Counted from the first letter of the stretch, positions 30,341 to 47,905 are shown. The stretch is 64,000 nucleotides of DNA from Bdellovibrionota bacterium (GCA_964201665.1 CAXNEW010000001.1:2623-66622), one strand, 5' to 3'. Numbers and translations are program-made. Notes: generated by a model from the letters alone, not told the origin.

Positions 30341-31840
30341 TTAACGGGCGAAAATCTCAACAGTCTCCACCCACCTGGGCAAACGACTTAAACCCCCAAG
30401 AGCATAAATTGCTGCCAGCACACACAGAGTTGTCGCCAAGGCCGTTGGCCAAAGCTTAGCCACGCGTTTGTTTTGAGGAATTTCGTCAGTGGGTTCATCC
30501 TGATTCATGTACAAAGGAACTAAAATTTTCAGATAGAAACCAAGACCAAGAAGTGTTCCTAAAATCAGTAAACCTGCTGAAAAGTATTCTTGCCCAATCC
30601 ACAGGTCTTTGAGAATTAAATATTTTCCAAAAAAACCGGGCAAAGGCGGGATACCTGCAATGGAGAAAACAAAAAATGCAAAAATTCCCACAAAAATACC
30701 CTGAAATTTTCGTCCAATTTGTGGAAGGTTCTCGATTTTCAAATCCCCATGGGGCTCAAGGCCCAATTGAGTTGAAAACCTTTCTAAAAGTGCAAAAATT
30801 CCAACTACGCTAACAGAGTAAATAAAAAGGTAAGCAAACATGGACCCTGTCGCAAAAGGTCCGGCCGCCAAAGCTAATGCTGCGAAACCCGCGTTCACAA
30901 TTCCAGAATAAGCAAAAAGGCGGCGCAAGCTTTTTTGGGCCATTGCAAGAAGGCTTCCCGCAACAATCGACAAACCCGCAAGTCCAATCAAAATCTGCTT
31001 AAGCTCAGGAAAATTTGAAAAACCGGTGAGCGTCCAAATGCCTGCCAGGGCTCCAAAAACAGAAATTTTTGTAGCCGTAGAAAGCATCGCTGCCATTGCA
31101 GTGGGCGATGCTTGGTAAACATCGGGTGCCCACATGTGCAAAGGAAACAAAGCGAGCTTAAAGGACAAACTCGAAATTATTAAAATTGCGGCCGAAAGGG
31201 CCATAAATTTTTCAGGGCCGCTGTTTACTGACTTTAAAGCAGAGGCAATGAGCTCAAAATCCAGAGTTCCCGTGAGACCGTAAAAGAGGGCTGCTCCCAT
31301 TAAAAAAAATCCCGAACCAAAGGCTCCGGTCAAAAGATATTTTAATCCGGCTTCAAGAGATTTTTCTCTGTCCGTGTCTAGGGATGCCATCACATAGCCA
31401 GTTATGGCGAGAGTTTCGAGATAAACAAAAAATGAAACCCAATCTCGGGCGCCAGGTAAAAGCGTAAGGCCCAAAACTTGAACAACCAAAATAGCTAGCC
31501 ATTCGGGATGCAACACGCCATTTCGCGTTGGGGTGACAAATGTTGATACCAATAACGCAAGAATCCCTACTGCGCAGCCCACGAGCCTAGTGAAGGCATT
31601 CATCTCTAGCGCTGTGCCCATAACAGCCACTGGAGGATTTCCAAGTTGAATCGCCAACAAACCCACAAAGGGAACAAAAACAAAAAAACTAAGTACCCGT
31701 GTAAACCCAATCCCTAAACGAAAGCCCGCAGCTAAAGTCGAAAAAACCAAACCTACACAAAGCCAAAGAAGCGGAAAAAGAGCCTGAAGCTCATTTGGGC
31801 CCAGGGTAAAAACAGAGGAATCAAAAAAACTACTTTCCAT
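30341..31840 (-). CDS. nuoN: NADH-quinone oxidoreductase subunit N (cluster 1)
   Basis: ..LFPLHMWAPDVYQASPTAMAAMLSTATK.. and its position after nuoM. Confidence 0.8.
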   Translation of the reverse strand: MESSFFDSSVFTLGPNELQALFPLLWLCVGLVFSTLAAGFRLGIGFTRVLSFFVFVPFVGLLAIQLGNPPVAVMGTALEMNAFTRLVGCAVGILALLVSTFVTPTRNGVLHPEWLAILVVQVLGLTLLPGARDWVSFFVYLETLAITGYVMASLDTDREKSLEAGLKYLLTGAFGSGFFLMGAALFYGLTGTLDFELIASALKSVNSGPEKFMALSAAILIISSLSFKLALFPLHMWAPDVYQASPTAMAAMLSTATKISVFGALAGIWTLTGFSNFPELKQILIGLAGLSIVAGSLLAMAQKSLRRLFAYSGIVNAGFAALALAAGPFATGSMFAYLFIYSVSVVGIFALLERFSTQLGLEPHGDLKIENLPQIGRKFQGIFVGIFAFFVFSIAGIPPLPGFFGKYLILKDLWIGQEYFSAGLLILGTLLGLGFYLKILVPLYMNQDEPTDEIPQNKRVAKLWPTALATTLCVLAAIYALGGLSRLPRWVETVEIFAR

Positions 31841-31843
31841 TTT

Positions 31844-33343
31844 TCACCTAAAATAAGTTAGAACCTGCGTAGCCGCAGGTTCTACTTTCGAAAGAATTGC
31901 CTGAGAACCAAAACCTAAATAGATCATAAATAAAAGTAGAGGAACTAAACTTGCCCATTCGTTCCAAGTCACTCTAACTGGATGAGATTTCACAAGTTCA
32001 GAAACAGGTCCATAGGCAAACCGTCTGAGCATTCCCAGCATATAAATAGCTCCAAGCAAAACTCCCGACAGCGCAACCAGCGAATAAACAGGAAATGTTT
32101 TGAAACTACCTGCGAGAATTAAAAACTCTCCTACAAAACCCGGCAACCCTGGAAGACCAATCGAGGCCATTGAAGCTAAAATAAAACTTGTGGCAAGCCA
32201 TGCATGCTCTTGGGCAAAGCCTCCATATTTTGAAATTTCTCTTGAGTGAGTACGCTCATAAATAATTCCGAAAATCAAAAACAGAGCGCCTGTACTTAAA
32301 CCGTGGGCAATATTTTGAAAAAAGGCCCCCTGTAAGGCTTCGACGCCAAGAGCAAAGAGTCCCAAAACCATAAAGCCCAAGTGCGAAACCGAAGAATAAG
32401 CGATCATTTTTTTAATGTCAGTTTGGAACCAGGCCGCGAAAGCGCCCATCACGATTCCCACACAACCTAATGCCATGAGTGTCGGAGCCGCTGCTGCGCT
32501 TGCCTCTGGAAATAGCGGTAGGCACCAACGAGCAATTCCGTAAACTCCTAACTTCAACAAAACTCCAGCCAAAATCACTGAGGCCCCGGTTGGCGCTTCA
32601 GTGTGGGCATCAGGCAACCAAGTATGAAAAGGCCAAACGGGAATTTTAACAACAAATGCGAGCATAAAACCTAAAAACAAAAGGCCTTGAACCGAGCCCC
32701 ATCCTTGAAATTCAAAATTTGTTGCAACAAGATCGTGCCACCCTAAACTTGCAACATCAAACTGGAATGCCAAAGCTAAAATAGCTGCAAGCATGAAAAG
32801 TGATCCCGCCATAGTAAATGCAAAAAATTTTAAGGAAGCATAAACTCGATTTTTAGACCCCCACCCCCCAATTAAGAGATACATCGGGATGAGCATAAAC
32901 TCCCAAAAACAATAAAAAACAAAGGCGTCTGCGGCGAGTAAGGACCCAACCGAGGCTCCATTTAAAATCGAAAAAAGTCCTAAATATCCTGGACCCAAAT
33001 TCTTTTTGTTTAGTGAAAAAAACCCCAAACAAAGACTCAAAAGAACATTGAGACCCAGAAGGGGAATATTGAGCCCATCTAAACCAAGCGAAAACCGACT
33101 CTTAAGAAATGGAATCCAGTCCCAAGAAAAATATACCGGAAATGCCCGTGGCCCGCCGCCATCCCCTGCAACACTGAGCTCCTCCCAAATGGGGCCAATT
33201 GCCCAAACGAAAAGGAGTACCCAAACAATCTGAAACACCAGACTTGAGTACTGCGCAAGCAATGGGATTTTTTTGGGAAACAAAAACAACAAAAGCCCCG
33301 TTACAAAGGGCCACAACAAAAACAAAAGCAATGAATTTTCCAT
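31844..33343 (-). CDS. nuoM: NADH-quinone oxidoreductase subunit M (cluster 1)
   Basis: ..VWPFHTWLPDAHTEAPTGASVILAGVLLKLGVYG.. Confidence 0.85.
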   Translation of the reverse strand: MENSLLLFLLWPFVTGLLLFLFPKKIPLLAQYSSLVFQIVWVLLFVWAIGPIWEELSVAGDGGGPRAFPVYFSWDWIPFLKSRFSLGLDGLNIPLLGLNVLLSLCLGFFSLNKKNLGPGYLGLFSILNGASVGSLLAADAFVFYCFWEFMLIPMYLLIGGWGSKNRVYASLKFFAFTMAGSLFMLAAILALAFQFDVASLGWHDLVATNFEFQGWGSVQGLLFLGFMLAFVVKIPVWPFHTWLPDAHTEAPTGASVILAGVLLKLGVYGIARWCLPLFPEASAAAAPTLMALGCVGIVMGAFAAWFQTDIKKMIAYSSVSHLGFMVLGLFALGVEALQGAFFQNIAHGLSTGALFLIFGIIYERTHSREISKYGGFAQEHAWLATSFILASMASIGLPGLPGFVGEFLILAGSFKTFPVYSLVALSGVLLGAIYMLGMLRRFAYGPVSELVKSHPVRVTWNEWASLVPLLLFMIYLGFGSQAILSKVEPAATQVLTYFR

Positions 33344-33344
33344 T

Positions 33345-35276
33345 TCACAACACCCCCCAGCCCGAAAAGATCGCTACACAAATTGAGAGGGCCGCAACGA
33401 AAACTAAATACCAAGTATAGGTCTGGACTCCGCCGGTATGAAAAAGAGCCAACACGTTTCCTGATAGATTTAAAGAATCTTTTATGCCATGGAGGGCGCC
33501 ATTTATGAGAGAGTGATCTACAATTTTTGACCCTGTCCGAGCGACAAAAGCCAGTGGCTTCAAAAACAAAATTCCGTAAATCTCATCTACATAGAATTTA
33601 TTTTCACTCAGGCGAGTAAAAAAACCTGGGTTAGATTCCACAGCACTTTTTGCTTGGATCTGTCCAAATTTTTTCCAAGAAAGGTAGGCTATCCCCAGAG
33701 ATCCACCCGTGGTGAATAAAACCAAAAGCCACTCTGCCAAATGACTCAAATGGTGGGCTTCAGCTGTTCCACCACCCAATTGAGGCGTCCACCCAATCCA
33801 ACTTAAATTTACCCACTCAGTAAATTTATGAATCCCTCCCAAAATATCGGGTACCTCAAAAAAGCCAACGACAACACTAAGCAAGGCCAAAATTCCAAGC
33901 GGGACAGTCATTAGCCAATGGCTTTCATGGGCATGTTCGGCTTCTTTTGTCCTAGGCTTGCCCCAGAAAGCAAGGGAGTAAGCTCTCAGCATATAAAAGG
34001 CCGTGAGGAGTGCCGCTCCCAAAAGTAAAAAGTAAACGACCGGGCTTTTTACAAAGGCTTTTTCAAGAATCAGGTCTTTTGAAAAAAATCCGGATGTAAG
34101 CGGAAATCCAATAATTGCCAGTGTTCCCACCAAAAAAGTTCCGTGGGTTAGGGGCATTTTTTTCTGCAACCCCCCCATTTCAAGCAGGTCTTGTTTTTCA
34201 TGCATTCCATGAATGACCGAGCCCGCCCCTAAAAACAAAAGTGCTTTAAAACAAGCGTGGGTCACGACATGAAAAAAGGCCGCAACCGGCGCGCCAATAC
34301 CAAGAGCCGCAAACATAAATCCCAACTGAGAAACTGTTGAGTAGGCCAATACTTTTTTAATATCTCTCTGTGTGAGCGCGATAAGTGCCGCTAACCATGC
34401 CGTTGAAAGGCCAATCACCAAAATCACTTCAAGCAATTGTGCTTGTCCTTCAAAAATGGGCCAAAGCCTGAGGCTTACAAAAACCCCTGAAGTCACCATA
34501 GTCGCGGCGTGAATCAATGCAGAAACGGGCGTTGGCCCCGCCATTGCATCCGGAAGCCAAACGTACAAAGGAATCTGAGCTGACTTTCCGGTTGAGGCCC
34601 AAAAAATTCCGGCGGCAAAAATCAAAAGCGAAGTAGAGCCTAGTGCAGCAGCTTGTGGTCCAGAGACAAAAGCTAAAATTTCAGAAATGTTTAAGGTGCC
34701 AAAATCTCGAATGGCAATAAACAACGCCACAAGAAAACCCAAGTCACCTATTCGGTTTGTAACAAAAGCTTTCATACCAGCTTCTGTATTTTTATTTTCT
34801 TTGTACCAATAGCCAATCAACAGGTAGGAGCAAAGTCCGACCCCCTCCCACCCTAAAAAAACTCCAACAAGATTTTGTGAAAGCACGAGGGTCAGCATCG
34901 CGGCCAAAAACAAATTGAGGTAGGCAAAAAATCGCCAAGGACTTTCGTCGTGCGACATATAGGATACGGCGTAAGTATGAATGAGGCCACCAATTCCCGT
35001 AATCACCAACAGCATGACGGAAGTGACGGCTGTCACTTCGAGTGCAAAATCAACTTTTATGTTTCCGGTAGAAAACCAAGTAAACAAAAAGTCTGTAATG
35101 TGAGTTGAGAATCCATTCTGTGAAAAAATGATTAGACTTGTAAAAAATGAGGCAAACGCAGCAAGGGTTCCAATGGCTCCGCTTAAATAAGGATTTTTAG
35201 ACCGAATCAAAAGACCATTCAAAGCCGCTCCAATGAGTGGAAAAAAGACTATCCATCTTAAGGCTTCAGATTTCAT
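33345..35276 (-). CDS. nuoL: NADH-quinone oxidoreductase subunit L (cluster 1, 643 aa)
   Basis: ..GKSAQIPLYVWLPDAMAGPTPVSALIHAATMVTSGVF.. It has a single lateral-helix segment ..VDHSLINGALHG.. Confidence 0.85.
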   Translation of the reverse strand: MKSEALRWIVFFPLIGAALNGLLIRSKNPYLSGAIGTLAAFASFFTSLIIFSQNGFSTHITDFLFTWFSTGNIKVDFALEVTAVTSVMLLVITGIGGLIHTYAVSYMSHDESPWRFFAYLNLFLAAMLTLVLSQNLVGVFLGWEGVGLCSYLLIGYWYKENKNTEAGMKAFVTNRIGDLGFLVALFIAIRDFGTLNISEILAFVSGPQAAALGSTSLLIFAAGIFWASTGKSAQIPLYVWLPDAMAGPTPVSALIHAATMVTSGVFVSLRLWPIFEGQAQLLEVILVIGLSTAWLAALIALTQRDIKKVLAYSTVSQLGFMFAALGIGAPVAAFFHVVTHACFKALLFLGAGSVIHGMHEKQDLLEMGGLQKKMPLTHGTFLVGTLAIIGFPLTSGFFSKDLILEKAFVKSPVVYFLLLGAALLTAFYMLRAYSLAFWGKPRTKEAEHAHESHWLMTVPLGILALLSVVVGFFEVPDILGGIHKFTEWVNLSWIGWTPQLGGGTAEAHHLSHLAEWLLVLFTTGGSLGIAYLSWKKFGQIQAKSAVESNPGFFTRLSENKFYVDEIYGILFLKPLAFVARTGSKIVDHSLINGALHGIKDSLNLSGNVLALFHTGGVQTYTWYLVFVAALSICVAIFSGWGVL

Positions 35277-35286
35277 TTTTAATTCC

Positions 35287-35607
35287 CTAACCCTTCAAAG
35301 ATCTCAAATCGTCGAGCGAGACTGTTCCCACTTTTCTAAAGATTGCAACAAATAGACCCAACGCCACGGCAGCCTCGGCCGCTGCAACTAAGACAATAAA
35401 AAGAACTAAGGACGCTCCCTCAGGATTTCGGTGCAGATTTGAAAAACTCACTAAGCACAAATTCACCCCGTTGAGCATGAGCTCCAAACACATGAGGGCA
35501 ATCAAGCCCGACCTTCGAATCAAAAAGCCCGATACCCCAATACAAAAAAGTAGGACCCCGATTCCAACATGAAACTGCGTTACAGATAATCCAGAAAACA
35601 ATTCCAT
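35287..35607 (-). CDS. nuoK: NADH-quinone oxidoreductase subunit K (cluster 1)
   Basis: ..LELMLNGVNLCLVSF.. and ..AAAEAAVALGL.. ATG 35607 is preferred over TTG 35625. Confidence 0.8.
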   Translation of the reverse strand: MELFSGLSVTQFHVGIGVLLFCIGVSGFLIRRSGLIALMCLELMLNGVNLCLVSFSNLHRNPEGASLVLFIVLVAAAEAAVALGLFVAIFRKVGTVSLDDLRSLKG

Positions 35608-35611
35608 TTTT

Positions 35612-36157
35612 TTACTTACCTTCAACCTGATCCAATTGTTTTTTGGGCTTCCCTAAAACCACAACTCCCATAACGGTTGCAAAAATCAGAAGGCCCGCCA
35701 CCTGAAAGGGTAAATGATACTTCGAAAGAAACTGCAAAGAGATCACCGACGGAGAGGCAATAGAAGCAAGCGACTCAACCTCCGCCGCGCCCTGATTTCC
35801 AAAAGAACTTCTAAACGCGGCCACGCTTAAGCCCAAACCTAAAAATAAGCTTACAAAAACTCCTCCCGCAATTGAAACTGCCCGCCCGGGAAGAGTCAAA
35901 GAAAGCGGCTTAAGATCTAGCAACATGACAATAAAAACAAACAAAACCGCTATGGCGCCGGCATAAATAAGAATTTGAATGGCTCCCATAAAAAAATGAC
36001 CAAGCCCTATATAAAGAGCCCCCGTCAGAAAAAGAGTTGCCATCAAATTCACCGCACTCACAACCGGATTTTTCGAAAGCACTACAGAAAGAGCCGTAAC
36101 CAAGGTCAAAAAACCTAAAACAATTTGCACCACGTTTGGGCTGCCAACGGATTCCAT
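35612..36157 (-). CDS. nuoJ: NADH-quinone oxidoreductase subunit J (cluster 1)
   Basis: Its position between nuoH and nuoK. ..QILIYAGAIAVLFVFIVML.. is typical of NuoJ/ND6. Confidence 0.75.
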   Translation of the reverse strand: MESVGSPNVVQIVLGFLTLVTALSVVLSKNPVVSAVNLMATLFLTGALYIGLGHFFMGAIQILIYAGAIAVLFVFIVMLLDLKPLSLTLPGRAVSIAGGVFVSLFLGLGLSVAAFRSSFGNQGAAEVESLASIASPSVISLQFLSKYHLPFQVAGLLIFATVMGVVVLGKPKKQLDQVEGK

Positions 36158-37240
36158 TTACAAACCTCGACCCGAGTAAAAAAAAGTGATGAGCACTGTC
36201 GCAATAACATTCAAAATTCCTAAGGGCAGTAGAACTTTCCAGCCCAAATCCATAAGTTGGTCATAGCGAAAGCGAGGCAAAGTCCACCTTACCCAAACAA
36301 AAATCCACATAAACACCGCTACCTTTGATGCAAAAGCCGCAAGCTGAATGAGTCCCTGTATCCAGCTGGCTTGGTCTAAGGGAAACCCCCACCCAACAAT
36401 GAGATCTCTAAGTTCAGCCTGAGAAATAAACGGAAGATTAAATCCGCCAAAAAACAATGTAACTAGAAATGATGAAGCCAAAATCATGGCCACATATTCG
36501 CCCATCATAAACAAACCAAATTTGAGACCAGAATATTCCGTGTGATACCCCGCCACCAATTCACTTTCCCCTTCGGGCAAATCAAAAGGAAGCCTATTGG
36601 TTTCGGCAAACGAGCAAACCCATAAAATTAAAAATGCCAAAGGCTGGTAAAGGACTCCCCAATGACCCAGTTTTCCGCCGACTTCTTGGGCTCGAACAAT
36701 TTCGCGAAGATCCAAAGTTCCATAGGCCATTACAAGCGAGGTGATTGTAATTCCTATGGCAATTTCATAGGAAATCATTTGAGAACTCGCCCTAAGGGCT
36801 CCCATCAAAGAAAATTTATTATTTGAGGCCCAGCCGGCCGCAAGAACCGAGAACACATGCAAACTCGTAATTGCAAGCAAAAGTAAAAGACCCACATTCA
36901 CGTTGGCAATTTGCCCAGGGAATTCCTGCCCACCAATCAATACAGTTCCAGAAAATGGAATTACTGAAAACGCAAACATAGGAGGCAACACCGCCAAAGC
37001 CGGAGCTAAAATGAAAAGTACTTTGTGTGCCTGTGCCGGGATGTTTTCTTCTTTAAAAACGAGCTTAATAGCATCTGAAATCGGCTGCAGAAGCCCAAGT
37101 GGCCCCACACGATTGGGACCAACCCGTCTTTGCATCCAGGCAGATCCCCGCCGTTCAATGGTCACCATAATCGGAACCGAGGTAAGAAGGGCAATTCCAA
37201 CCAATGGAACTAACAACAGCGACCATTCAAAATTTGTCAT
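36158..37240 (-). CDS. nuoH: NADH-quinone oxidoreductase subunit H (cluster 1)
   Basis: ..ERRGSAWMQRRVGPNRVGPLGLLQPISDAIKL.. and ..ETNRLPFDLPEGESELVAGYHTEYSG.. Confidence 0.85.
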   Translation of the reverse strand: MTNFEWSLLLVPLVGIALLTSVPIMVTIERRGSAWMQRRVGPNRVGPLGLLQPISDAIKLVFKEENIPAQAHKVLFILAPALAVLPPMFAFSVIPFSGTVLIGGQEFPGQIANVNVGLLLLLAITSLHVFSVLAAGWASNNKFSLMGALRASSQMISYEIAIGITITSLVMAYGTLDLREIVRAQEVGGKLGHWGVLYQPLAFLILWVCSFAETNRLPFDLPEGESELVAGYHTEYSGLKFGLFMMGEYVAMILASSFLVTLFFGGFNLPFISQAELRDLIVGWGFPLDQASWIQGLIQLAAFASKVAVFMWIFVWVRWTLPRFRYDQLMDLGWKVLLPLGILNVIATVLITFFYSGRGL

Positions 37241-37242: not shown

Positions 37243-38607
37243 TTAATTTCTCATCCGACTCCGGATACCCTCAAGGAGTGCACCCATTTGTCCTGATACT
37301 TTTGGCATTGATACTGGAACAGAATCCATCGGCTTTGCGAGTGCCTCAAACTCATGACGATATTTTTTAATCATCGAAGTTACGGGCATGGCGCACGCAT
37401 CAGAAAGAACACAAATCGTTTTTCCGGCCATATTTGCACAAGCTTCAAGAACAGTATCGATGTCTTTTTTGCTTCCCTGCCCATCAACTAATCGATGCAG
37501 CATTTGATAAACCCAGTAGGTGCCCTCGCGACAGGGAACACATTGCCCACAAGATTCGTGGGCATAAAAACGAGCCGTCCGCATGGCGATTTGCGGAATT
37601 GAACGACGATCATCCATCACAATAATTGCGCCGCTTCCGGCCATAGTTCCTTTTGCAGCTAAGCTGTCAAAATCAATGGCAACATCAAATTCGTCTGCAG
37701 TTAAAACCGGCGATGACGAGCCTCCCGGGAAACAGGCCTTTAAGGTTCGCCCCGGAGAGGGGCCGCCGCAAATTTCATAAAGTACAGTTTTCAAATTAAT
37801 ACCCACAGGTAATTCAAAAAACCCTGGCTTCTGAACATCCCCCGACACACAAAGTAGCCGAGTGCCACCGCCTCGAGGAGTTCCGTTTCCATTTTTTTGA
37901 AACCACTGAGCGCCGTTATTCAGAATTCCCGGAACCTGACACAAAGTTTCAACATTATTTACAATCGTCGGCCCGCCAAAGGCGCCGCTAACAGCCGGAA
38001 AAGGCGGCTTGAGTCTTGGCTGCCCGCGATCGCCTTCGAGAGATTCAATCAATCCAGTTTCTTCGCCACAAATATAAGCGCCCGCACCAGGGTGTACGGT
38101 GAGGTCAAAATCGCGGCCTGATCCAAAAATGTTTTTTCCAAGATACCCAGCCGCGTAAGCTTCATCGACGGCTTTTTGAGTTCGCTCTAGGGCAAGCCTC
38201 AGCTCGCCGCGAATGTAAATATAACCTGTTTTGGATCCAATCGCTGAAGCGGCACAAATCATTCCTTCAATCAGACGATGTGGAACATGTTCCAAGATTT
38301 GTCTGTCTTTAAAAGTTCCGGGCTCGCCCTCGTCGGCATTGCAAACCAAGTAAACAGGTTTTGTTGGATTTTTTGGAATAAAACTCCACTTAACTCCTGT
38401 GGCAAAACCCGCTCCACCTAAACCCCGTAGACCCGAATTTTTAACTTCTGAAATGATGGCGTCGGGTTCTTGAGTAACAGCCTTTTTTGCAGCCTGGTAG
38501 CCATTCTCTTTTTCAAAAGCCTTCATTGTCCAGGACTCCGGTTTGTCCATTCCCGCCAAAACAACTCTGTTTTCGAGGGCATGCGGTGGAAGAATTCTTT
38601 GGGTCAT
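37243..38607 (-). CDS. nuoF: NADH-quinone oxidoreductase subunit F
   Basis: ..GLRGLGGAGFATGVKWSF.., ..NADEGEPGTFKDR.. and ..ESCGQCVPCREGT.. Confidence 0.9.
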   Translation of the reverse strand: MTQRILPPHALENRVVLAGMDKPESWTMKAFEKENGYQAAKKAVTQEPDAIISEVKNSGLRGLGGAGFATGVKWSFIPKNPTKPVYLVCNADEGEPGTFKDRQILEHVPHRLIEGMICAASAIGSKTGYIYIRGELRLALERTQKAVDEAYAAGYLGKNIFGSGRDFDLTVHPGAGAYICGEETGLIESLEGDRGQPRLKPPFPAVSGAFGGPTIVNNVETLCQVPGILNNGAQWFQKNGNGTPRGGGTRLLCVSGDVQKPGFFELPVGINLKTVLYEICGGPSPGRTLKACFPGGSSSPVLTADEFDVAIDFDSLAAKGTMAGSGAIIVMDDRRSIPQIAMRTARFYAHESCGQCVPCREGTYWVYQMLHRLVDGQGSKKDIDTVLEACANMAGKTICVLSDACAMPVTSMIKKYRHEFEALAKPMDSVPVSMPKVSGQMGALLEGIRSRMRN

Positions 38608-39705: not shown

Positions 39706-40092
39706 CTACCGTTCCCATTCCAGAGCTTTAACTTTAAACTCGTACCAAAGGCCCAAAACAAAAAAGAAAAGAAAAAATCCAACAAGACTCAAAATTACAG
39801 GGCCCACCTTTATGAGTTCGCTCCACCCAAGAGCCACCGGTAATAAAAATGCGGCCTCAAGATCAAACAGCAAGAACAAAATAGCAACGAGGTAATACTT
39901 TACACTTACCCGATCGCGAGCTTGGCCGGTCGGCGCAATTCCGCACTCATAGGGCAAAATTTTTGTCCCCTCGAGTTTAAGGGGCCCCAAAAATCTGCCC
40001 ACAAACAAAGCTCCAGAAACAACAACTAAGGCAAAGCCCAACATCGCAAGCATGGAAAGCAATACGATCGTCGGATTATCTAGCTCTGCCAA
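39706..40092 (-). CDS. nuoA: NADH-quinone oxidoreductase subunit A (cluster 1)
   Basis: ..PYECGIAPTG.....V.YYLVAILFLLFDLEAAFLLP.. The apparent start is TTG. Confidence 0.8.
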   Translation of the reverse strand: MAELDNPTIVLLSMLAMLGFALVVVSGALFVGRFLGPLKLEGTKILPYECGIAPTGQARDRVSVKYYLVAILFLLFDLEAAFLLPVALGWSELIKVGPVILSLVGFFLFFFVLGLWYEFKVKALEWER

Positions 40093-40101: not shown

Positions 40102-41631
40102 CTATTGGGGTATCTGTCCGCCAACATAAAAATTCACTACACGCATGGAAAGTTGAAAAACGGGTTCCCAGTAAATTCCAAGAATAACATTAGGGACCAC
40201 CAAAAGCGCAATAAAGACCTTAGAAACCCCACAATTGAATGCAAGCTTTGCTTTTTCAGATGCGTGATCCATTTCGGGTGCATCCAAAAAAATGGCCCGC
40301 AAAATTTTCGCATAATAATAAAGCGAAATTACAGAGTTGATGGCAGCAAGAATTGCAAAGCCATAGAGTTCGCGCGCGACAACAGCCTTAAATAAATAAA
40401 ATTTACCTATGAACCCCGCAAACGGAGGCGCTCCGATCAAAGAGAACAAAAAAATCGCCATCGCAACGGCGTAGAAGGGTTGAGTTTGGGCAAGGCCTTT
40501 AAAGTTCCGAAGTTGGTCACCACCTGTGGCGTCTTCCATTTTGGATGCAACCCAGAAAGCCCCTAAATTCATCAAACAGTAAATTGTAAGATAAAAAACA
40601 ATTGCCACGATTCCCTCGTGGGTTTGGGTCGAAGCCCCCATCAAAATATATCCGGCGTGGGCAATGCTTGAGTAGGCTAAAATGCGCTTTACGGAAACCT
40701 GCCCCAATGCAGCCAAATTCCCCATGAACATTGTAAAAATTGACGAAACTAATAGAAATTTTGGCCAGTCAAAGGGACCAATAATATGAAACCCTACAGG
40801 AATATTCGCCAGCTGCGAGATGGCCTCTGTCCCTTCAATTGGCTGAGAAAACCCCGTTACAAAAAAACGAATAAGTAGGGCAAAACCCGCAGCCTTTGGT
40901 CCAACAGAAAGCAAAGCCGAAACAGGAGTCGGGGCCCCTTCATAAACATCTGGAGTCCACATATGCATTGGTGCCGCAGAAATTTTGTAGCCAATGCCAG
41001 CAAAAACCATAAGCACACCAATCCAAAGTGCCAGCGGAATTTGTGCTGAATCTTGCTGAGTAAAAAACTGTCTAAGGTCGGTAATTTCTAGCGAACCCGT
41101 GTACCCATAAAGAAGGCTCATCCCAAAAACCATAATGGCCGAAGCCATAGATCCATAAACAACATATTTTAAGCTCGCCTCAACCGACGCCTGTCTTTCG
41201 CGATTAAAGCCCGCGAGTGTGTAACTTAAAATTGAGACCGTTTCGATGGCTAAATACACCATCAAAAGATGGTTGGAGATTCCCATAAAAACCAAGCCAG
41301 AGAGTAGCGCTAAAACAATTGAATAGTACTCAGAGCGCCGATCAGAACGGATCTCTTGGGATTTTGAACTTAGGACAAAAACAAAAAATCCCACAACAAT
41401 TGCAAAAAGAGAAAAAAACAAACCGAAAGAATCAAAAACAAGCATTCCCGCAAAGGCTTCTTGGGCGGGCATTCCTATCATTGAGGCAAAAAGTCCACCC
41501 GCGGCTAAAAGAGATGCAAGCGAAACTCCCAACCATGCTCCGTGTGACTGAATCCATAACCCCATCATGAGAACAGCAAGGGAGCCCCCACAAAGAACAA
41601 GGGCTGGACTTACAAAAAATAGGGACTGCAT
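40102..41631 (-). CDS. nuoN: NADH-quinone oxidoreductase subunit N (cluster 2)
   Basis: ..SAAPMHMWTPDVYEGAPTPVSALLSVGPKAAGF.. Confidence 0.8.
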   Translation of the reverse strand: MQSLFFVSPALVLCGGSLAVLMMGLWIQSHGAWLGVSLASLLAAGGLFASMIGMPAQEAFAGMLVFDSFGLFFSLFAIVVGFFVFVLSSKSQEIRSDRRSEYYSIVLALLSGLVFMGISNHLLMVYLAIETVSILSYTLAGFNRERQASVEASLKYVVYGSMASAIMVFGMSLLYGYTGSLEITDLRQFFTQQDSAQIPLALWIGVLMVFAGIGYKISAAPMHMWTPDVYEGAPTPVSALLSVGPKAAGFALLIRFFVTGFSQPIEGTEAISQLANIPVGFHIIGPFDWPKFLLVSSIFTMFMGNLAALGQVSVKRILAYSSIAHAGYILMGASTQTHEGIVAIVFYLTIYCLMNLGAFWVASKMEDATGGDQLRNFKGLAQTQPFYAVAMAIFLFSLIGAPPFAGFIGKFYLFKAVVARELYGFAILAAINSVISLYYYAKILRAIFLDAPEMDHASEKAKLAFNCGVSKVFIALLVVPNVILGIYWEPVFQLSMRVVNFYVGGQIPQ

Positions 41632-41690: not shown

Positions 41691-43253
41691 TTACTGAACA
41701 ATGTTCTGAATAATTGACCCCAAGCTTGTTTTCATAAAATCTAAAAAGGGCTGGGGATAAACTCCTATCCAAATACATAAAATTCCAAGGGGCGCCAAAA
41801 CAACCCATTCTCGCAAAGTCATTTCAGGAATTTCGTGAGCCGGATGCATGACTCCGGTTCCGGTGTCCTTATGCAGAGTCGTGTAAGGACCCAGAAAAAC
41901 TCTCTGAACCATCCAAAGTAAATAGGCTGCGCCTAAAACTATTCCAAGCGAGGCAACTATGGTTTCAGTTTTGTAAACTGGGAAAGCACCAAGAAAAACC
42001 ATCGACTCTGAAATAAATCCGTTGAGTCCCGGCAATCCGAGCCCTGCAAAAACTGCAAGTGTCCAGACAGCGGTAATCATCGGCGCCTTTTGCGCGATTC
42101 CGCCGAATCCCAATTTTCCTTCCGGGGTTACAATGTATCGATGGTGAAGTCGGTCATACAAAACTCCAACAAGCATAAACATCATTGCCGCCGACAAGCC
42201 GTGGTTAAACATTTGTAACATGGCTCCATTCATTCCGGCTGGCGTAAAAACGGCCATTCCCAAAATGCAATAACCCATGTGGCTGACTGACGAATAGGCC
42301 ACCAATTTTTTGATGTCCTTTTGTGCCATGGCACAAAAAGCCCCATAAATTATATTTATGATGCCAAGAATGGCCATCGTATAGGCAAAATATTCAGTGG
42401 CCTGAGGAAGAACTGTAAAATTGAGACGCAACATCCCGTAGGTTCCCATTTTCAAAAGAACTCCTGCCAGAATTACCGAAACCGCTGTTGGAGCCTGAAC
42501 GTGCGCCCAGGGCAACCAGGTGTGAAACGGAAACAAGGGAACCTTTACCGCAAAACCAATAAACAAAAGCCACCAAACCGTTTTATCAAAGGGAAGCTCG
42601 CTTCCAAAAATAACTATTTTGTATTGAGTCCAATCAATTTGCGCCAACTTTAAAATGTTGAAAGTTGGTAAAACATCTCCGTTGGGACCCTTGGAGTAAA
42701 AGAAAAGAGCCAGCATCCCGACGAGCATAAGTACTGAGCCCGCCATCGTGTAGAGGAAAAACTTAATGGCTGCGTATTCTTTTTTCTCGCCGCCCCAGAT
42801 TCCAACCAAAAAGTACATTGGCAAAAGCATGAGCTCCCAAAATACAAAAAACAAAAAGAAATCAAGCGAGCAAAACAGCCCCATCATGCCAACATGCAAA
42901 AGTAGAAACATTGAAAAATAGCCTTTAACCATTTTCTTTACGTTCCAACCTGCAAAAATACACAAAAAACTGAGCATCGCTGTAAGCAGAATCATCAGAA
43001 TACTGAGGCCGTCGACCCCCATGTGATATTCGGCCTGAATACTCGTTATCCACTGAAACTGCTCAACAAACTGTGGGCCTGGATTTGTCACGTCAAAGGC
43101 CGAAATTAAAACAAGCGCTAAAGCTAGCGGCACAGCCGTTGCGGAGGCGGCAATCCACTTAATTAAATTTTCCTGCCGGCTTGGCACAAAATTTATGGCT
43201 GCGATGCCAATGAGCGGAAAAAAGGTCATCCAACTTAAAATGTTTTGGGTCAT
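41691..43253 (-). CDS. nuoM: NADH-quinone oxidoreductase subunit M (cluster 2)
   Basis: ..LFPFHTWLPWAHVQAPTAVSVILAGVLLKMGTYG.. Confidence 0.85.
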   Translation of the reverse strand: MTQNILSWMTFFPLIGIAAINFVPSRQENLIKWIAASATAVPLALALVLISAFDVTNPGPQFVEQFQWITSIQAEYHMGVDGLSILMILLTAMLSFLCIFAGWNVKKMVKGYFSMFLLLHVGMMGLFCSLDFFLFFVFWELMLLPMYFLVGIWGGEKKEYAAIKFFLYTMAGSVLMLVGMLALFFYSKGPNGDVLPTFNILKLAQIDWTQYKIVIFGSELPFDKTVWWLLFIGFAVKVPLFPFHTWLPWAHVQAPTAVSVILAGVLLKMGTYGMLRLNFTVLPQATEYFAYTMAILGIINIIYGAFCAMAQKDIKKLVAYSSVSHMGYCILGMAVFTPAGMNGAMLQMFNHGLSAAMMFMLVGVLYDRLHHRYIVTPEGKLGFGGIAQKAPMITAVWTLAVFAGLGLPGLNGFISESMVFLGAFPVYKTETIVASLGIVLGAAYLLWMVQRVFLGPYTTLHKDTGTGVMHPAHEIPEMTLREWVVLAPLGILCIWIGVYPQPFLDFMKTSLGSIIQNIVQ

Positions 43254-45391
43254 AGAATACCTCTAAAGAAGAAAAGAACGACTAGTGCTGCAACTGCGAC
43301 CAGCAAATATCGCTGGATTTTTCCATTTTGTAGGGTCCTTAAGCTGGCGCCAAAAACCGAGGGAATCCCGCCCCCCAAACCATCAACCATGACTCCATCA
43401 ACGACGACGTCATCAAAGGTTCCGGCCGATTTATATCCAACTTTGGCAACATCACTCCACCCATCAACGACAATTCTATCAATGACGTTGTCATCAAACT
43501 TCGCAATCTTATCTGCACTGGGCATTAGAAATTTCTGAATGAAAATTTTGATATAGAAAAAATCAAAATAATAAAGATTATCAATAAGCTTGTGAACAAA
43601 TTTGGGCCACAAATTGGATAACTTTTCGGACGAAATTTTCTTTGATCCGTACACCAAAAAACTTACTCCGATTCCTAGACCCGCAAGAATGAGCGACAAA
43701 ATCATAGCTGGCATATGGGCCAGATGCTCGTAGTGCTCAAAACCGTGGTGCCCCCCTGTTTCGTGGCCATGTGCGCCCGCTTCAACAAGTGTCGACCCAA
43801 GTCGCGGAACCTGAACTAGATTTTTAAACCAGTCATTTGAGGCTCCAAAAATTTTATCCGCACCGCCAAAAAGACCGCCCGTTAGGGAGCCCGTATAAAA
43901 AATCGCCAACGAGAAAAATGCTAGCACGGCCAGAGGCAGCCACATGTTCCACCCACCTTCATGGGCTTCCTCATAGTGATGGTGATCATGAGGCTTTCCA
44001 AAGAAAGTCATAAAAATTAACCTGAACATATAAAAAGCTGTTAGGCCCGCGGTTAAAAATGCAGCTATAGGTAAAAACATGTGGTCTGGATTATTAAAAA
44101 ATCCAAAACCAAGAACTCCAGCCAAAATCATATCCTTTGAAACAAATCCGCTGAATGCGGGAACCCCCGAAATTGCTAGCGTTGTGATGAACATGGCCGC
44201 GAATGTAATTGGCAATTTTTTCTTCAATCCACCCATGTTTCTCATGTCCTGTTCGTGGTGCATGGCATAGATCACCGAGCCTGAGCTCATAAACAAACAG
44301 GCCTTAAACACAGCGTGCGTGATGAGATGAAAAAACGCCGCCGTAAACGCGCCCACGCCAACTGCCATCACCATGTACCCGAGCTGAGAAAGAGTTGAGT
44401 AAGCGAGAACTTTTTTTATATCATTTTGTTTGATCGCAAGAATTGCTGCCAGTAGGGCGGTTGTGGCTCCAACGTAAGCAACCAGAGTTAAAACGTGACC
44501 TGCTTCTAAAATTGGAAACATTCGAATAATCAAATAAACGCCCGCAGCAACCATGGTCGCTGCGTGAATCAATGCCGAAACAGGAGTGGGCCCCTCCATC
44601 GCGTCAGGCAACCAAACCTGAAGCGGAAATTGTGCCGACTTTCCGACCGTTCCAAGAAAAATTAAAAATCCAATAAACCCTGCTGCTGTGAAACCAAGAA
44701 GCTGGCCTGAAAGTGCCCCCTCTCCTACAGCTCGGTAAATATCCTCAAACCTAAAAGATCCGACGATTCCAAAGAGGGCAAGCATTCCAATAAAAAGTCC
44801 GGTATCCCCCACTCGAGTGGTCATGAAGGCTTTTAGCGAGGCATTTGCGGCAGAGGTTTTGTGTCGATAAAAACCAATCAAAAGATAGGAGCAAAGGCCC
44901 ATCAGCTCCCAACACATAAACAAAGTTAACAGGTTGTCCGAAATGACAAGTCCCAACATGGACGCCGTGAACAAACTTAAAAATGAAAAAAACGAAGCGT
45001 ATCGATATCCGTCTTCGGGTTTTCCATGGTGGTCGCGCATGTAGCCTGTAGAAAACAAGTGAATCAAAGTCGCACAAAGAGTGACCATCAAAAGCATGAT
45101 GGCCGCAATGTTATCCAGCCTAACGCCAACAATAAGCTTGAAGGGAATTGTTTCGGTGCCTACATCAATCCACTTCCACGCATGACTTACGGCCCAATTC
45201 GGATCGTTTGCACTCCACATGGCTGCAAAAATCCGACACGCAAGCAGGAATGAAGCGAAAATGGCTCCCGTGCTTAACCAGTCCCCCATGCGGGGGAGCT
45301 TGACCCCGAAAGCTGTCTGAATAACGTAGGCCAAAAGTGGAAGGGTAGGTATCCAAAGAGCTGTATAAATGAGGGGATCAACACTTTCCAT
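43250..45391 (-). CDS. nuoL: NADH-quinone oxidoreductase subunit L (cluster 2, 713 aa, extended)
   Basis: ..GKSAQFPLQVWLPDAMEGPTPVSALIHAATMVAAGVY.. It has His-rich inserts and a duplicated FDD.VID..V.DG segment in the C-terminal lateral-helix region. Confidence 0.85.
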   Translation of the reverse strand: MESVDPLIYTALWIPTLPLLAYVIQTAFGVKLPRMGDWLSTGAIFASFLLACRIFAAMWSANDPNWAVSHAWKWIDVGTETIPFKLIVGVRLDNIAAIMLLMVTLCATLIHLFSTGYMRDHHGKPEDGYRYASFFSFLSLFTASMLGLVISDNLLTLFMCWELMGLCSYLLIGFYRHKTSAANASLKAFMTTRVGDTGLFIGMLALFGIVGSFRFEDIYRAVGEGALSGQLLGFTAAGFIGFLIFLGTVGKSAQFPLQVWLPDAMEGPTPVSALIHAATMVAAGVYLIIRMFPILEAGHVLTLVAYVGATTALLAAILAIKQNDIKKVLAYSTLSQLGYMVMAVGVGAFTAAFFHLITHAVFKACLFMSSGSVIYAMHHEQDMRNMGGLKKKLPITFAAMFITTLAISGVPAFSGFVSKDMILAGVLGFGFFNNPDHMFLPIAAFLTAGLTAFYMFRLIFMTFFGKPHDHHHYEEAHEGGWNMWLPLAVLAFFSLAIFYTGSLTGGLFGGADKIFGASNDWFKNLVQVPRLGSTLVEAGAHGHETGGHHGFEHYEHLAHMPAMILSLILAGLGIGVSFLVYGSKKISSEKLSNLWPKFVHKLIDNLYYFDFFYIKIFIQKFLMPSADKIAKFDDNVIDRIVVDGWSDVAKVGYKSAGTFDDVVVDGVMVDGLGGGIPSVFGASLRTLQNGKIQRYLLVAVAALVVLFFFRGIL

Positions 45392-45392
45392 T

Positions 45393-45722
45393 TTAGCCTC
45401 TCAGCCCCACGGCGACATCGGGATCAATTGTTTGCTTGGAGCCAAAAAATCTCAACACAATTGCCAATGCAACAGCCGCCTCAATTGCGGCCAAGATTAT
45501 AATAAACAACGAAAAAACCTGGCCGTGAAGCCATCCATCTGACCGGTCCTTTAAAAATGCATTAAAGGCAACAAAATTTAATCCAGCCCCGTTGAGCATA
45601 AGCTCCACTCCCATGAAAATTCCTATGGAATTTTTTCGAGTAAGAGCCGTAAGTAAACCCAGGCCAAAAAAAATGGCCGCTAGGCTTAAGTAAACGTTCA
45701 AGTTATTTGCAAGTCCCGACAT
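45393..45722 (-). CDS. nuoK: NADH-quinone oxidoreductase subunit K (cluster 2)
   Basis: ..VELMLNGAGLNFVAF.. and ..AAIEAAVALAIV.. Confidence 0.8.
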   Translation of the reverse strand: MSGLANNLNVYLSLAAIFFGLGLLTALTRKNSIGIFMGVELMLNGAGLNFVAFNAFLKDRSDGWLHGQVFSLFIIILAAIEAAVALAIVLRFFGSKQTIDPDVAVGLRG

Positions 45723-45740
45723 TTCTAACTCACCCTTGCC

Positions 45741-46265
45741 TTATTCCAAGTTACTTCCAGATGATTTTTCATGATAATGGGGGCGCGCAATCACAACCGC
45801 GCCAATGAGCCCCGCCAACAACACAATAGCAACGTATTGAAAAACCAGGGCGTAAGGTCCAACCAAAGCCCTGCCGATGGCCTCCACTGTGTGTTCGCGA
45901 ACAGGAACATCAATTCTTGGCCAATTAGCTTGGTTGACAAGTTTTAATAGCGCCCACAAAACGGCCACCGAAATAATAAATGGGGCAAAAAACCCCTTCC
46001 AGCCACCTACCCCACGGTTTTTGTAAACATCTTCGCTCATCATTACTGCAAATAGAATCACAACAATAATTCCACCGACGTAAATAATGAGTTGAGCGGC
46101 AGCAAGAAAATCTGCACCCAAGGCTCCATACAAACCCGCAACCGACAGCAAAGAAAAAACCAAAGCCACGGCTGCGTAAAGTATGTTGGGATGAAAGGCT
46201 ACGACCACCGCGCTCAACGCACCCAACAGAAAACAAAATCCCACAAAAAAATCTACAAATGTCAT
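45741..46265 (-). CDS. nuoJ: NADH-quinone oxidoreductase subunit J (cluster 2)
   Basis: Its position between nuoH and nuoK, plus ..AQLIIYVGGIIVVILFAVMM.. Confidence 0.75.
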   Translation of the reverse strand: MTFVDFFVGFCFLLGALSAVVVAFHPNILYAAVALVFSLLSVAGLYGALGADFLAAAQLIIYVGGIIVVILFAVMMSEDVYKNRGVGGWKGFFAPFIISVAVLWALLKLVNQANWPRIDVPVREHTVEAIGRALVGPYALVFQYVAIVLLAGLIGAVVIARPHYHEKSSGSNLE

Positions 46266-46267
46266 GG

Positions 46268-47428
46268 TCAGCCACCAATCCCTAGGCTCAAGCCGAGAAG
46301 CTGAAGGAGGCTTCGCCCGTCAAAAACCCAAACCCAAATCGCCGCCAAAAATAAGTTTACAAAGCTAATTGGAATCAAATATTTCCAACAAAGATCCATC
46401 AGCTGATCCACCCGAAGCCTCGGCAGGGTCCAACGAATCCACATCACAATAAAAACAAGCAAAGAAACTTTGGCCAAAAACACGGACATCATCAACAGCG
46501 TCTGAATCAGCGGAGTTAAACTTGCTTCACCTATTTTAATACCTGGATCAATCGAGGAGAGGTCTACAAAGGGCAAATTCCATCCCCCTAAAAATATAGC
46601 CGTAGCGATACACGCAAATAGAATGGCGTCAGCGAATTCAGAAAGCGCATAAAGACCAAACCTCATACCCGAAAACTCGGTATTAAAACCTGAAACCAAT
46701 TCACTTTCGGCTTCTGGCAAATCAAAGGGTGTCCTATTGCACTCAGCCAAGGCTGCCGTGAAATAAATAAAGAAGTTAATAAACAAAAAGGGATTATGAA
46801 AAACGTTCCAGAAATGTCCGCCACCTTGGCCCGAACCTGGCCAGGCCTGCGCATCAACAATTCCGAACATACTCATTGACCCCGAAACCACCACCACACT
46901 CAAAACGGAAATTCCCAATGGAATTTCGTAAGAGACAATCTGCGCTGCCCCTCTCATTCCGCCAAGAAGTGACCATTTATTATCAGAGGCCCATGCCCCC
47001 AAGAGGATGCCCAACGAAACCAGTGAGCCCAGGGCCATCACATAGAAAACCCCAATATCAAGGTCGGCCCCAATGACGTATTTTGAAAAGGGAACCAACG
47101 CAAATGCCCCCAAAGATCCCGCAGTAACGAGTGAGGGCGCCAAATTAAACAAAAATCGATCCGCATTTTTTGGAATTGTGTCTTCTTTAAGAAACATTTT
47201 AATGCCGTCAGCAAAAAACTGGAGAATACCGATGGGCCCCACCCGATTGGGACCAACCCTTTCCTGCATATCGGCTGCAACTTTCCTCTCGATGTAGGTA
47301 CAAATTCCGCCAACAGGCATAGCAAAGAGTAAAATAACAATAACCGCAGAAAGTACCGAAAAAACCAAAAGGGGTATTTGTAGGCCTAACAAGCCATTTA
47401 TGCCGCTTAAAAACTCAGGAAGACTCAC
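46268..47428 (-). CDS. nuoH: NADH-quinone oxidoreductase subunit H (cluster 2)
   Basis: ..ERKVAADMQERVGPNRVGPIGILQFFADGIKM.. and ..ECNRTPFDLPEAESELVSGFNTEFSG.. Confidence 0.85.
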   Translation of the reverse strand: MSLPEFLSGINGLLGLQIPLLVFSVLSAVIVILLFAMPVGGICTYIERKVAADMQERVGPNRVGPIGILQFFADGIKMFLKEDTIPKNADRFLFNLAPSLVTAGSLGAFALVPFSKYVIGADLDIGVFYVMALGSLVSLGILLGAWASDNKWSLLGGMRGAAQIVSYEIPLGISVLSVVVVSGSMSMFGIVDAQAWPGSGQGGGHFWNVFHNPFLFINFFIYFTAALAECNRTPFDLPEAESELVSGFNTEFSGMRFGLYALSEFADAILFACIATAIFLGGWNLPFVDLSSIDPGIKIGEASLTPLIQTLLMMSVFLAKVSLLVFIVMWIRWTLPRLRVDQLMDLCWKYLIPISFVNLFLAAIWVWVFDGRSLLQLLGLSLGIGG

Positions 47429-47473
47429 TCATCGCTCCTTGTGCTGCTCAACTCAAAAACTCAACTATAAAAA

Positions 47474-47905
47474 TCAAATTCGAACTTTTGCCTTTAGCGT
47501 TTTTGCTAAAACTTTTCTTCGATCGTCCGAATCGCGTACCCAGTCGATGTCACCCTTTTTCCACTCGTAAATTAATCCGAGCAAAAGAACAAAAAGAAAA
47601 GCAAAAGCTAATAGAAAAACGGCCGCACCCTCGCCAGACTGCAAAGAATCTCTAAACAAAACTAACACAGGAAAAAGGAGTGCTACCTCAACATCAAAAA
47701 CCAAAAAGCAAATCGCCACTAAGTAGAAACGATTATTAAACATTGAGTAGGCAGAACCCCTTGGAATTTCACCGCACTCATAAGTCATTTCTTTGCCAGC
47801 ATGTGGAAAGCTTGGCCTAAAAAATTTTGAAATAAATAGAATCGCCACCGGAAGAATGGCGGCTAAAACAACAAATGACAGAGCATTGCCTAACTCTTGG
47901 AGCAT
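47474..47905 (-). CDS. nuoA: NADH-quinone oxidoreductase subunit A (cluster 2)
   Basis: ..TYECGEIPRG......NRFYLVAICFLVFDVEVALLFP.. Confidence 0.8.
   Translation of the reverse strand: MLQELGNALSFVVLAAILPVAILFISKFFRPSFPHAGKEMTYECGEIPRGSAYSMFNNRFYLVAICFLVFDVEVALLFPVLVLFRDSLQSGEGAAVFLLAFAFLFVLLLGLIYEWKKGDIDWVRDSDDRRKVLAKTLKAKVRI

Follow-up and report, generated by a model that had tools for sequence, protein, structure and literature searches.

The stretch of DNA considered here, hereafter the window, comprises 64,000 nucleotides (nt) of a Bdellovibrionota bacterium (GCA_964201665.1, CAXNEW010000001.1:2623-66622), and its central part is occupied by genes for subunits of complex I, the NADH:quinone oxidoreductase encoded in the canonical case by the operon nuoA to nuoN. 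Specifically, between positions 30341 and 47905, counted from the first letter of the window, the minus strand carries 17 consecutive open reading frames (ORFs), each of which encodes a complex I subunit and none of which encodes NuoB, NuoD, NuoG or NuoI. An initial annotation of the window had made this claim, and it holds good, as the ORF listing, the Pfam matches and the tblastn searches agree on it. The matches of all 17 proteins to their Pfam families lie far above the gathering score, and the assignments of the L, M and N subunits were confirmed by tblastn against the E. coli subunits. The genes are organized in two adjacent clusters. The first to be encountered, cluster 2 (47905 down to 40102), has the gene order A-H-J-K-L-M-N, and it is followed by cluster 1 (40092 down to 30341), with the gene order A-C-E-F-H-J-K-L-M-N. 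The single genes are the following.

47474-47905, minus strand: nuoA2, 143 amino acids (aa), first gene of cluster 2; Pfam Oxidored_q4, 2.6e-28
46268-47428, minus strand: nuoH2, 386 aa; Pfam NADHdh, 1.2e-113
45741-46265, minus strand: nuoJ2, 174 aa; Pfam Oxidored_q3, 1.3e-32
45393-45722, minus strand: nuoK2, 109 aa; Pfam Oxidored_q2, 8.6e-20
43250-45391, minus strand: nuoL2, 713 aa; Pfam Proton_antipo_M and Proton_antipo_N; best E. coli match NuoL
41691-43253, minus strand: nuoM2, 520 aa; Pfam Proton_antipo_M; best E. coli match NuoM
40102-41631, minus strand: nuoN2, 509 aa, last gene of cluster 2; Pfam Proton_antipo_M; best E. coli match NuoN
39706-40092, minus strand: nuoA1, 128 aa, first gene of cluster 1; Pfam Oxidored_q4, 3e-26
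39139-39693, minus strand: nuoC1, 184 aa; Pfam Complex1_30kDa, 9.6e-38
38604-39137, minus strand: nuoE1, 177 aa; Pfam 2Fe-2S_thioredx, 2.2e-52
37243-38607, minus strand: nuoF1, 454 aa; Pfam Complex1_51K and NADH_4Fe-4S
36158-37240, minus strand: nuoH1, 360 aa; Pfam NADHdh, 2.1e-115
35612-36157, minus strand: nuoJ1, 181 aa; Pfam Oxidored_q3, 3.3e-25
35287-35625, minus strand: nuoK1, 112 aa; Pfam Oxidored_q2, 2.8e-25
33345-35276, minus strand: nuoL1, 643 aa; Pfam Proton_antipo_M and Proton_antipo_N
31844-33343, minus strand: nuoM1, 499 aa; Pfam Proton_antipo_M
30341-31840, minus strand: nuoN1, 499 aa, last nuo gene; Pfam Proton_antipo_M

The five junction lengths on which the initial annotation relied were all reproduced, namely 12 nt for A1|C1, 1 nt for C1|E1 (with the 177-aa gene-caller start of NuoE, as annotated in L001), 2 nt for F1|H1, 0 nt for H1|J1 and 45 nt for A2|H2. 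In addition, H2 and J2 are 2 nt apart, the spacing N2|A1 that separates the two clusters is 9 nt, and the widest junction of the whole region, M2|N2, measures 59 nt. Since nuoF1 is directly followed by nuoH1, there is no nuoG at this position, and since nuoH1 is followed by nuoJ1 at 0 nt, there is no nuoI. NuoC1 is a free-standing 30-kDa subunit, with no nuoB ahead and no nuoD behind, and E. coli NuoCD aligns with it by its C half only. In other words, cluster 2 is a membrane arm and nothing else, cluster 1 keeps C, E and F in addition, and neither of them, taken alone, encodes a complete enzyme, just as had been proposed. Compared with the canonical operon, cluster 1 holds A C E F H J K L M N instead of the full set from A to N; compared with the 11-subunit form of the enzyme (Nuo11), cluster 2 has no B, C, D and I of its own, that is, no genes for the quinone-reducing module (Q-module). 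Each cluster contains exactly one L, one M and one N, together with its own A, H, J and K, a composition that speaks against the earlier suggestion of a complex with supernumerary antiporter-like subunits. By contrast with this doubled membrane set, the tandem as a whole has a single NuoC, a single NuoE and a single NuoF for two membrane arms.

The four missing subunits were also sought outside these junctions. E. coli NuoB, NuoCD, NuoG and NuoI gave no tblastn match in any frame of the window, the C half of NuoCD on nuoC1 aside, and a collection of 58 diverse NuoB, NuoD, NuoG and NuoI sequences likewise produced no match at E<=0.01 except for the C halves of CD fusions on nuoC1. A Pfam scan of 20 flanking proteins and the 9.4 kb past the right end of the window, which is a segment of a metagenome contig, were equally devoid of NuoB, D, G and I. 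The idea that the membrane modules dock to a different redox module finds no support, there being no alternative NuoB/D-like module nearby.

Where the two clusters come from can be read from their affinities. The paralogues of cluster 1 and cluster 2 share 38% identity in A, 42% in H, 27% in J, 38% in L, 39% in M and 25% in N; consequently, the initial estimate that they are roughly half identical was too generous (H reaches 42%, the others 25-39%), whereas the statement that they are old, and not the outcome of a recent duplication, stands, as the two sets are orthologous to different forms of the enzyme, Nuo11 and the 14-subunit form (Nuo14), respectively. Beyond the lineage, the next-nearest NuoN homologues are of the Nuo11 type. 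In particular, an outgroup locus, L090 (GCA_040960625.1), which probably belongs to a Candidatus (Ca.) Deferrimicrobiaceae-like organism to judge from the names of NuoD matches 81-89% identical, contains the full 11-gene set in one cluster (A B C D H I J K L M N) and, after a gap of 30 nt, a cluster of the 14-type (A B C D E F G H I J K L...). In BLASTP comparisons with the proteins of the window, the 11-type subunits of L090 best match cluster 2 (H 53%, L 51%, M 53%, N 45%), and its 14-type A, C, E, F, H, J and K each best match cluster 1, with a near tie for NuoK (53.9 bits vs K1, 52.4 vs K2). From the side of the window, NuoA2 finds its best match in the 11-type NuoA of L090 and both NuoA1 and NuoH1 in the corresponding 14-type proteins, while the identity of NuoH2 to the 14-type NuoH of L090 is only 36%. 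A second outgroup locus, L093, is a stand-alone complete Nuo11, the NuoN of which is related to N2.

Order and orientation are thus the same in L090 and in the window, 11-type first and 14-type second, with a mapping to clusters 2 and 1, respectively; the difference is that the window has lost eight genes that L090 keeps, namely B, C, D and I of the 11-type cluster and B, D, G and I of the 14-type one. The tandem of L090 and the best-match mapping together suggest that the region is an ancestral double enzyme from which eight genes have been cleanly removed. On this sequence evidence, cluster 2 can be described as a Nuo11 minus B, C, D and I, and cluster 1 as a Nuo14 minus B, D, G and I. Another type of enlarged enzyme, the '2M' high-stoichiometry complex I reportedly described by Chadwick et al. 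in 2018 as combining an extra NuoM with an extended NuoL, was considered and set aside. Neither cluster has a second NuoM, and the 713 aa of NuoL2 are typical of a Nuo11-type NuoL (721 aa in L090, 714 aa in L093).

The same layout recurs in relatives. Searches with NuoN2 and NuoM2 retrieved approximately 65-75 clusters of close homologues, the named ones of which are metagenome-assembled genomes (MAGs) of Bdellovibrionales or Bdellovibrionota. The identical 17-gene order beside mfd was found in all four of the loci inspected, that is, L084 (GCA_018266335.1, 'Bdellovibrionales bacterium'), L086 (a scaffold of 2.08 Mb), L088 (GCA_041391385.1, 'Bdellovibrionota bacterium') and L089 (a contig from JGI); the affiliation of these relatives is that of the names they carry, Bdellovibrionales or Bdellovibrionota bacterium. 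The mfd gene lies immediately upstream in L084, L086 and L088, and in L089 gpsA intervenes. In global alignments, the identity of NuoN2 to that of the window is 66% for L084, 64% for L086, 56% for L088 and 48% for L089. The five genomes have kept the 17 ORFs intact throughout, with compact or overlapping junctions, mostly of -8 to +26 nt, and the layout was recovered in independent ENA, NCBI, JGI and Logan assemblies. An arrangement shared by genomes so divergent, and by independent assemblies, is old and stable and is not an assembly artefact. Within the lineage the proteins of cluster 2 are better conserved than those of cluster 1 (69-80% identity for H2 and 73-75% for M2, vs 60-70% for H1 and 32-47% for N1), NuoN1 being the fastest-evolving of the 17.

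Signs of function were looked for at single residues in the window and in the four relatives, using E. coli numbering and residue identities of the E. coli proteins verified by script, at positions that we take to be functionally important from the E. coli mutagenesis literature. In both sets and in all five genomes, NuoL keeps E144, D178, K229, D303, H334, H338, K342, K399 and D400, with the exception of a change of D400 to Glu in the L1 protein of L089; D563 is kept in neither set, nor in the outgroup. Both sets likewise keep E144, K234, K265, H322, H348 and E407 of NuoM, E133, K158, K217, K247 and K395 of NuoN, E36 and E72 of NuoK, and D79 and E81 of NuoA. In NuoH, 11/11 residues are retained in both sets (E36, R37, Q44, D63, E71, R148, E157, D213, E216, E220 and E228). 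The residues checked in NuoJ1 are kept too. As for the peripheral subunits, in the window and in the four relatives NuoE1 has kept its four N1a cysteines, and NuoF1 its four N3 cysteines together with E95 and Y178. Two cytoplasmic loops of NuoH, which face the Q-module and the approximate boundaries of which we take from the E. coli topology, are 62% and 76% identical between NuoH2 and complete Nuo11 enzymes, compared with 61% and 71% for the Nuo11 enzymes among themselves. Such an equal conservation indicates that the orphan arm, as we call a membrane arm without any peripheral subunit beside it, is under the same constraint as an arm that docks NuoB, NuoD and NuoI. Taken together, both membrane arms are intact and look like working complex I membrane domains.

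Other members of the phylum distribute these genes differently. In a sister group (NuoM2 60-62% identical; members named Bdellovibrionaceae or Pseudobdellovibrionaceae), two bare membrane arms, A H J K L M N and again A H J K L M N, follow each other at the same mfd/gpsA site; this was seen in L094, a contig of 2.98 Mb, and in a further place, P0306, and in fragmented form in L095. By tblastn, no remnants of peripheral genes were found in L094. In L094 and L095, mfd is split into two ORFs (163-3680 and 837-3769, respectively), and several nuo genes of L095 (11518-18676) are also in pieces; these broken ORFs are most likely frameshift errors of the assemblies rather than pseudogenes. B. bacteriovorus, in turn, has an operon that encodes the peripheral arm only, B-CD-E-F-G-I, with no membrane subunit within ~7 kb, and a MAG of Oligoflexales has a similar peripheral-arm-only operon, CD-E-F-G-I. 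These separate peripheral operons and the bare arms of the sister group show that in this phylum the peripheral genes can live apart from those of the membrane arm. The lineage of the window represents an intermediate condition, C, E and F having remained with the membrane genes.

This picture agrees with the literature on the phylum. According to a paper of 2026, every member of the Bdellovibrionota, predatory or not, has an orphan nuoAHJKLMN cluster at one and the same place in the chromosome, together with a second cluster that is a complete 14-gene operon in Peredibacter and is split in other members of the group (PMC13147790), and Bdellovibrio was given as an example of a split nuo operon as early as 2015 (PMC4758237). 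Cluster 2 has the same gene content as that orphan cluster, with no peripheral subunit, and it also lies at a conserved site, beside mfd; as the paper names no site, the identity of the two sites is likely rather than demonstrated. The second cluster of the window is neither complete, as in Peredibacter, nor stripped bare, as in the sister locus L094, since it keeps C, E and F and lacks B, D, G and I. Furthermore, in comparison with the known orphan nuoAHJKLMN systems, here the second cluster stands directly behind the orphan one. Split organization is therefore in part a documented norm for the lineage, and the initial annotation had named exactly such a documented norm as one of the circumstances that would refute its finding. 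In the literature searched, no description was found of the A-C-E-F-H-J-K-L-M-N variant, of the direct tandem of two arms, or of a derivation from a complete Nuo11 and Nuo14 tandem. The general phenomenon is already documented for the phylum, and A-C-E-F-H-J-K-L-M-N is new only as an arrangement.

The explanation that we favour, with a probability of about 0.6, is that the locus encodes a split complex I, the NuoB, NuoD, NuoG and NuoI subunits of which would be supplied in trans. The layout is in this sense a lineage habit of gene scattering, typical of Bdellovibrio-like bacteria, and not a new kind of enzyme. The ancestor would have possessed two complete enzymes in tandem, an 11-subunit one (A B C D H I J K L M N) and, behind it, a 14-subunit NADH-oxidising one (A-N). 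Subsequently, the genes for quinone-reducing and connecting subunits would have left the tandem, namely B, C, D and I from the first enzyme and B, D, G and I from the second, leaving two intact proton-pumping membrane arms along with NuoC, NuoE and NuoF of the second enzyme. The departed NuoB, D, G and I would now be made from another locus, after the manner of the B-CD-E-F-G-I operon of B. bacteriovorus. Cluster 1 together with the trans-encoded subunits would then form an ordinary 14-subunit NADH:quinone oxidoreductase, and cluster 2, the phylum-wide orphan arm, would dock a NuoB/D/I module, either a second trans-encoded Q-module or the one used by cluster 1. The initial annotation had put forward a B/D/G/I set encoded elsewhere and shared by two alternative membrane arms; its first half is the part that is best supported, by analogy with the B. 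bacteriovorus operon and with the bare arms of the sister group.

Several observations weigh against this explanation. The trans-encoded B, D, G and I of the lineage have not been located, and the case for their existence is built on what is seen in Bdellovibrio, as an analogy, and on the reasoning that 17 genes so conserved, with every key residue in place, must be in use. A scan of a genome collection with NuoF as query gave no close relative of this lineage among the matches listed, and a NuoD profile search returned mostly L090-like proteins (some named Ca. Deferrimicrobiaceae) and CD fusions of Oligoflexales, with none recognised as coming from the lineage. One candidate from that search, P0124, the sole unfused NuoD among the Oligoflexales-like matches, was rejected as a CD gene truncated at a contig end. 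A metagenome scan with NuoC1 was dominated by the universal YDMFGI motif and led mostly to canonical loci, no contig of the lineage being recognised among them, and the flanks of the Bdellovibrio peripheral operon have no synteny with the window. Moreover, of eight NuoF peptides specific to Bdellovibrio and Oligoflexales none occurs in NuoF1 (0/8), so that no particular closeness links cluster 1 to the peripheral operon of Bdellovibrio, and the analogy does not prove orthology. An adaptation of NuoH2 and NuoA2 to a 14-type partner was not detected, in a comparison with three Nuo11 outgroups that is underpowered and uninformative as to a shared peripheral arm, with one discriminating column and region-wise identities unshifted. 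Finally, the 17 genes are probably co-transcribed from the mfd-proximal end, as far as gene spacing tells, and a promoter and terminator scan, with counts at chance and no terminators in the junctions, neither supports nor excludes a single transcript.

A rival explanation holds that one peripheral arm (B, C, D, E, F, G and I, each encoded once) assembles on either the Nuo14- or the Nuo11-derived arm, giving two interchangeable complex I isoforms, possibly with distinct quinone preferences, ion specificities or pumping stoichiometries. We regard this as possible and still rather unlikely. The single NuoC, NuoE and NuoF of the tandem would be explained by it, as would the sister genomes with their two membrane arms alongside the one NuoF-bearing peripheral locus per B. 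bacteriovorus genome among the matches listed. Peredibacter, with only two nuo clusters, AHJKLMN and a complete set, and no separate BCDI (PMC13147790), points in the same direction, and so does the fact that the orphan arm is the better conserved one, with every residue of NuoH and NuoA that faces the Q-module in place. However, the loops of NuoH2 are still 11-type-like, with no measurable shift towards the 14-type, and no experimental precedent for an exchange of complex I arms was found in the literature searched.

Cluster 2 might otherwise act alone, as an Mrp-like cation/proton antiporter or an ion-leak module devoid of any quinone-reducing module, a function already suggested in the case of marine actinomycetes (Salinispora, Streptomyces, Kocuria), which have partial nuoAHJKLMN operons (PMC6676996). 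The likeness to Mrp/Mnh antiporters lies in the antiporter-like subunits (NuoL, M and N vs MrpA and MrpD) and in the NuoK- and NuoJ-like parts, and the antiporter-type Lys and Glu residues of cluster 2 are all intact. Isolated NuoL and NuoN are able to replace Mrp subunits. Yet NuoH (PF00146) and NuoA (PF00507), present in both clusters here, have no counterpart in Mrp, their role being in the quinone tunnel and in the interface with the peripheral arm. NuoH2 and NuoA2 keep all the loop residues checked, the loops of NuoH2 are conserved as in complete Nuo11 enzymes, and cluster 2 descends from such an enzyme, all of which makes the antiporter reading improbable. That the clusters are decaying remnants or an assembly chimera, with a third complete operon elsewhere doing the work, is most improbable of all: the absence of B, D, G and I and the complete 14-gene operon that Peredibacter has beside its orphan cluster (PMC13147790) would suit such a view, but 17 ORFs intact and free of frameshifts in five divergent genomes from four independent data sources, invariant catalytic and Fe-S residues and compact, often overlapping junctions strongly disfavour both pseudogenes and a chimeric assembly.

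In genome annotation, split or partial nuo clusters are usually taken for incomplete pathways and dismissed. The complete tandem of L090, the present lineage with C, E and F kept, the bare arms of the sister group and the separate peripheral operon of Bdellovibrio are four states of a clean evolutionary series, in which a double operon of 25 genes would have been dismantled gene by gene, with the remaining genes all under selection. 'Complex I incomplete' calls in Bdellovibrionota MAGs may be artefacts of the expectation of a single operon. The series also raises the question whether whole membrane arms are exchangeable on one peripheral arm; of the two arms, the orphan is the better conserved. 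If the two arms do share one peripheral arm, the scattering of the genes would be the genomic trace of a modularity in which one electron-input module serves two isoforms. Bdellovibrio being cultivable and genetically tractable, the question of arm exchange is open to experiment.

Outside the phylum, comparable cases are known. In myxobacteria, complex I is encoded by two complementary clusters, nuoEFJKLMN and nuoIHGDBA (PMC2330069), and two of the loci retrieved here, L040 and L055, match them. The likeness consists in two distant, complementary clusters for one enzyme, with E and F travelling with genes of the membrane arm; the difference is that in myxobacteria H and A sit with the peripheral genes and that no second, paralogous membrane arm lies in tandem. 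The orphan nuoAHJKLMN operons of Salinispora, Streptomyces and Kocuria, discussed as ion-pumping genes of marine adaptation (PMC6676996), encode the same seven subunits, again as an extra membrane-arm-only operon beside another nuo set, and their function is putative. They belong to an unrelated phylum and are an accessory, niche-linked copy, whereas the orphan arm considered here is phylum-wide, better conserved than its neighbour and of demonstrable Nuo11 descent. 'Nuo-partial' clusters have been treated as a general category in a preprint of 2025 (10.1101/2025.03.13.643058).

Further incomplete sets were met among the loci retrieved. Leptospira sp. L013 (NZ_CP177134.1) has, at 6707-18424, the genes A B C D E F H J K L M N; as in the window, nuoG and nuoI are missing at F|H and H|J. 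L032, from a Thermoanaerobaculia MAG, has A E F G H J K L M N and no B, C, D or I, and L073, from a Bdellovibrionales MAG, has C D E F G H J K L M N, while A, B and I are absent from the 4 kb upstream of it. The gene-by-gene scattering of nuo genes is thus commoner than the canonical picture implies. Two metagenome loci, L145 (7013-15314) and L147 (1178-6359), have the order A C D H J K L M; this set is of the 11-type and lacks nuoB and nuoI, so that here again the absent genes are those of the two small Fe-S subunits. In L099 (3519-4822, Ga0256833_1002980) a free-standing nuoA-nuoC-nuoE (118, 153 and 159 aa) is followed by unrelated genes, with no F, H or the rest after E, and the same A-C-E start is found in L097 (168-1369, Ga0256832_1106757), where the contig then ends; in both, the A|C and C|E junctions are as in cluster 1, with no B or D, and NuoC is 46-48% identical.

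As for the neighbourhood of the tandem, its divergent neighbour is the gene that marks the conserved site:

48069-51572, plus strand: mfd; Pfam TRCF, CarD_TRCF_RID and DEAD

The mfd gene lies upstream of nuoA2 in 8/8 places (the window, L084, L086, L088, L089, L094, the P0306 place and L095); between the two genes, gpsA and one small ORF may or may not intervene. The sigma-70-like match that scores best in the region (47904-47933, minus strand; TTAAAA, a spacer of 18 nt, TATAAT) terminates at the start codon annotated for nuoA2, so that either the true start lies further downstream or the match is due to chance; the length of NuoA2 among relatives is 142-160 aa. The proteins encoded on the flanks of the nuo region include Mfd, SurA-like proteins, PGM, UvrA, the ATP synthase a subunit, a TPR-repeat protein, SerRS and others. 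The TPR-repeat protein, of 1001 aa (27314-30319, minus strand), begins 21 nt downstream of nuoN1 on the same strand, and its gene may be co-transcribed with the nuo genes. A TPR protein of 962-991 aa occupies the same position in L084, L086 and L088, a 692-aa gene with no Pfam record does so in L089, and there is none in L094 or in the P0306 place.

At a larger scale, the part of the contig that lies beyond the right end of the window (L091, 1-9211, equivalent to approximately 64.2-73.4 kb of the window's numbering) carries rnpA, dnaA, dnaN, recF, gyrB and gyrA, an order that marks the replication-origin region and places the nuo tandem only ~25-40 kb from dnaA. At 57539-62060 on the minus strand (11319-15840 in L091), two small ORFs (90 and 103 aa, no Pfam match) stand ahead of the genes for subunits a (60619-61422) and c (60266-60583) of ATP synthase, and the next gene is not atpF but one for an 844-aa protein without Pfam match (57539-60073); the atp operon, too, looks split in this organism. 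Lastly, the gene at 23868-25415 on the plus strand encodes a protein of 515 aa in which thioredoxin, AhpC/TSA peroxiredoxin and MsrB (SelR) are fused. It adjoins the genes for a membrane protein of the CcdA/DsbD type (23231-23965) and for a TetR regulator (22600-23223), and this region (22600-25415, plus strand) looks like an oxidative-repair module.

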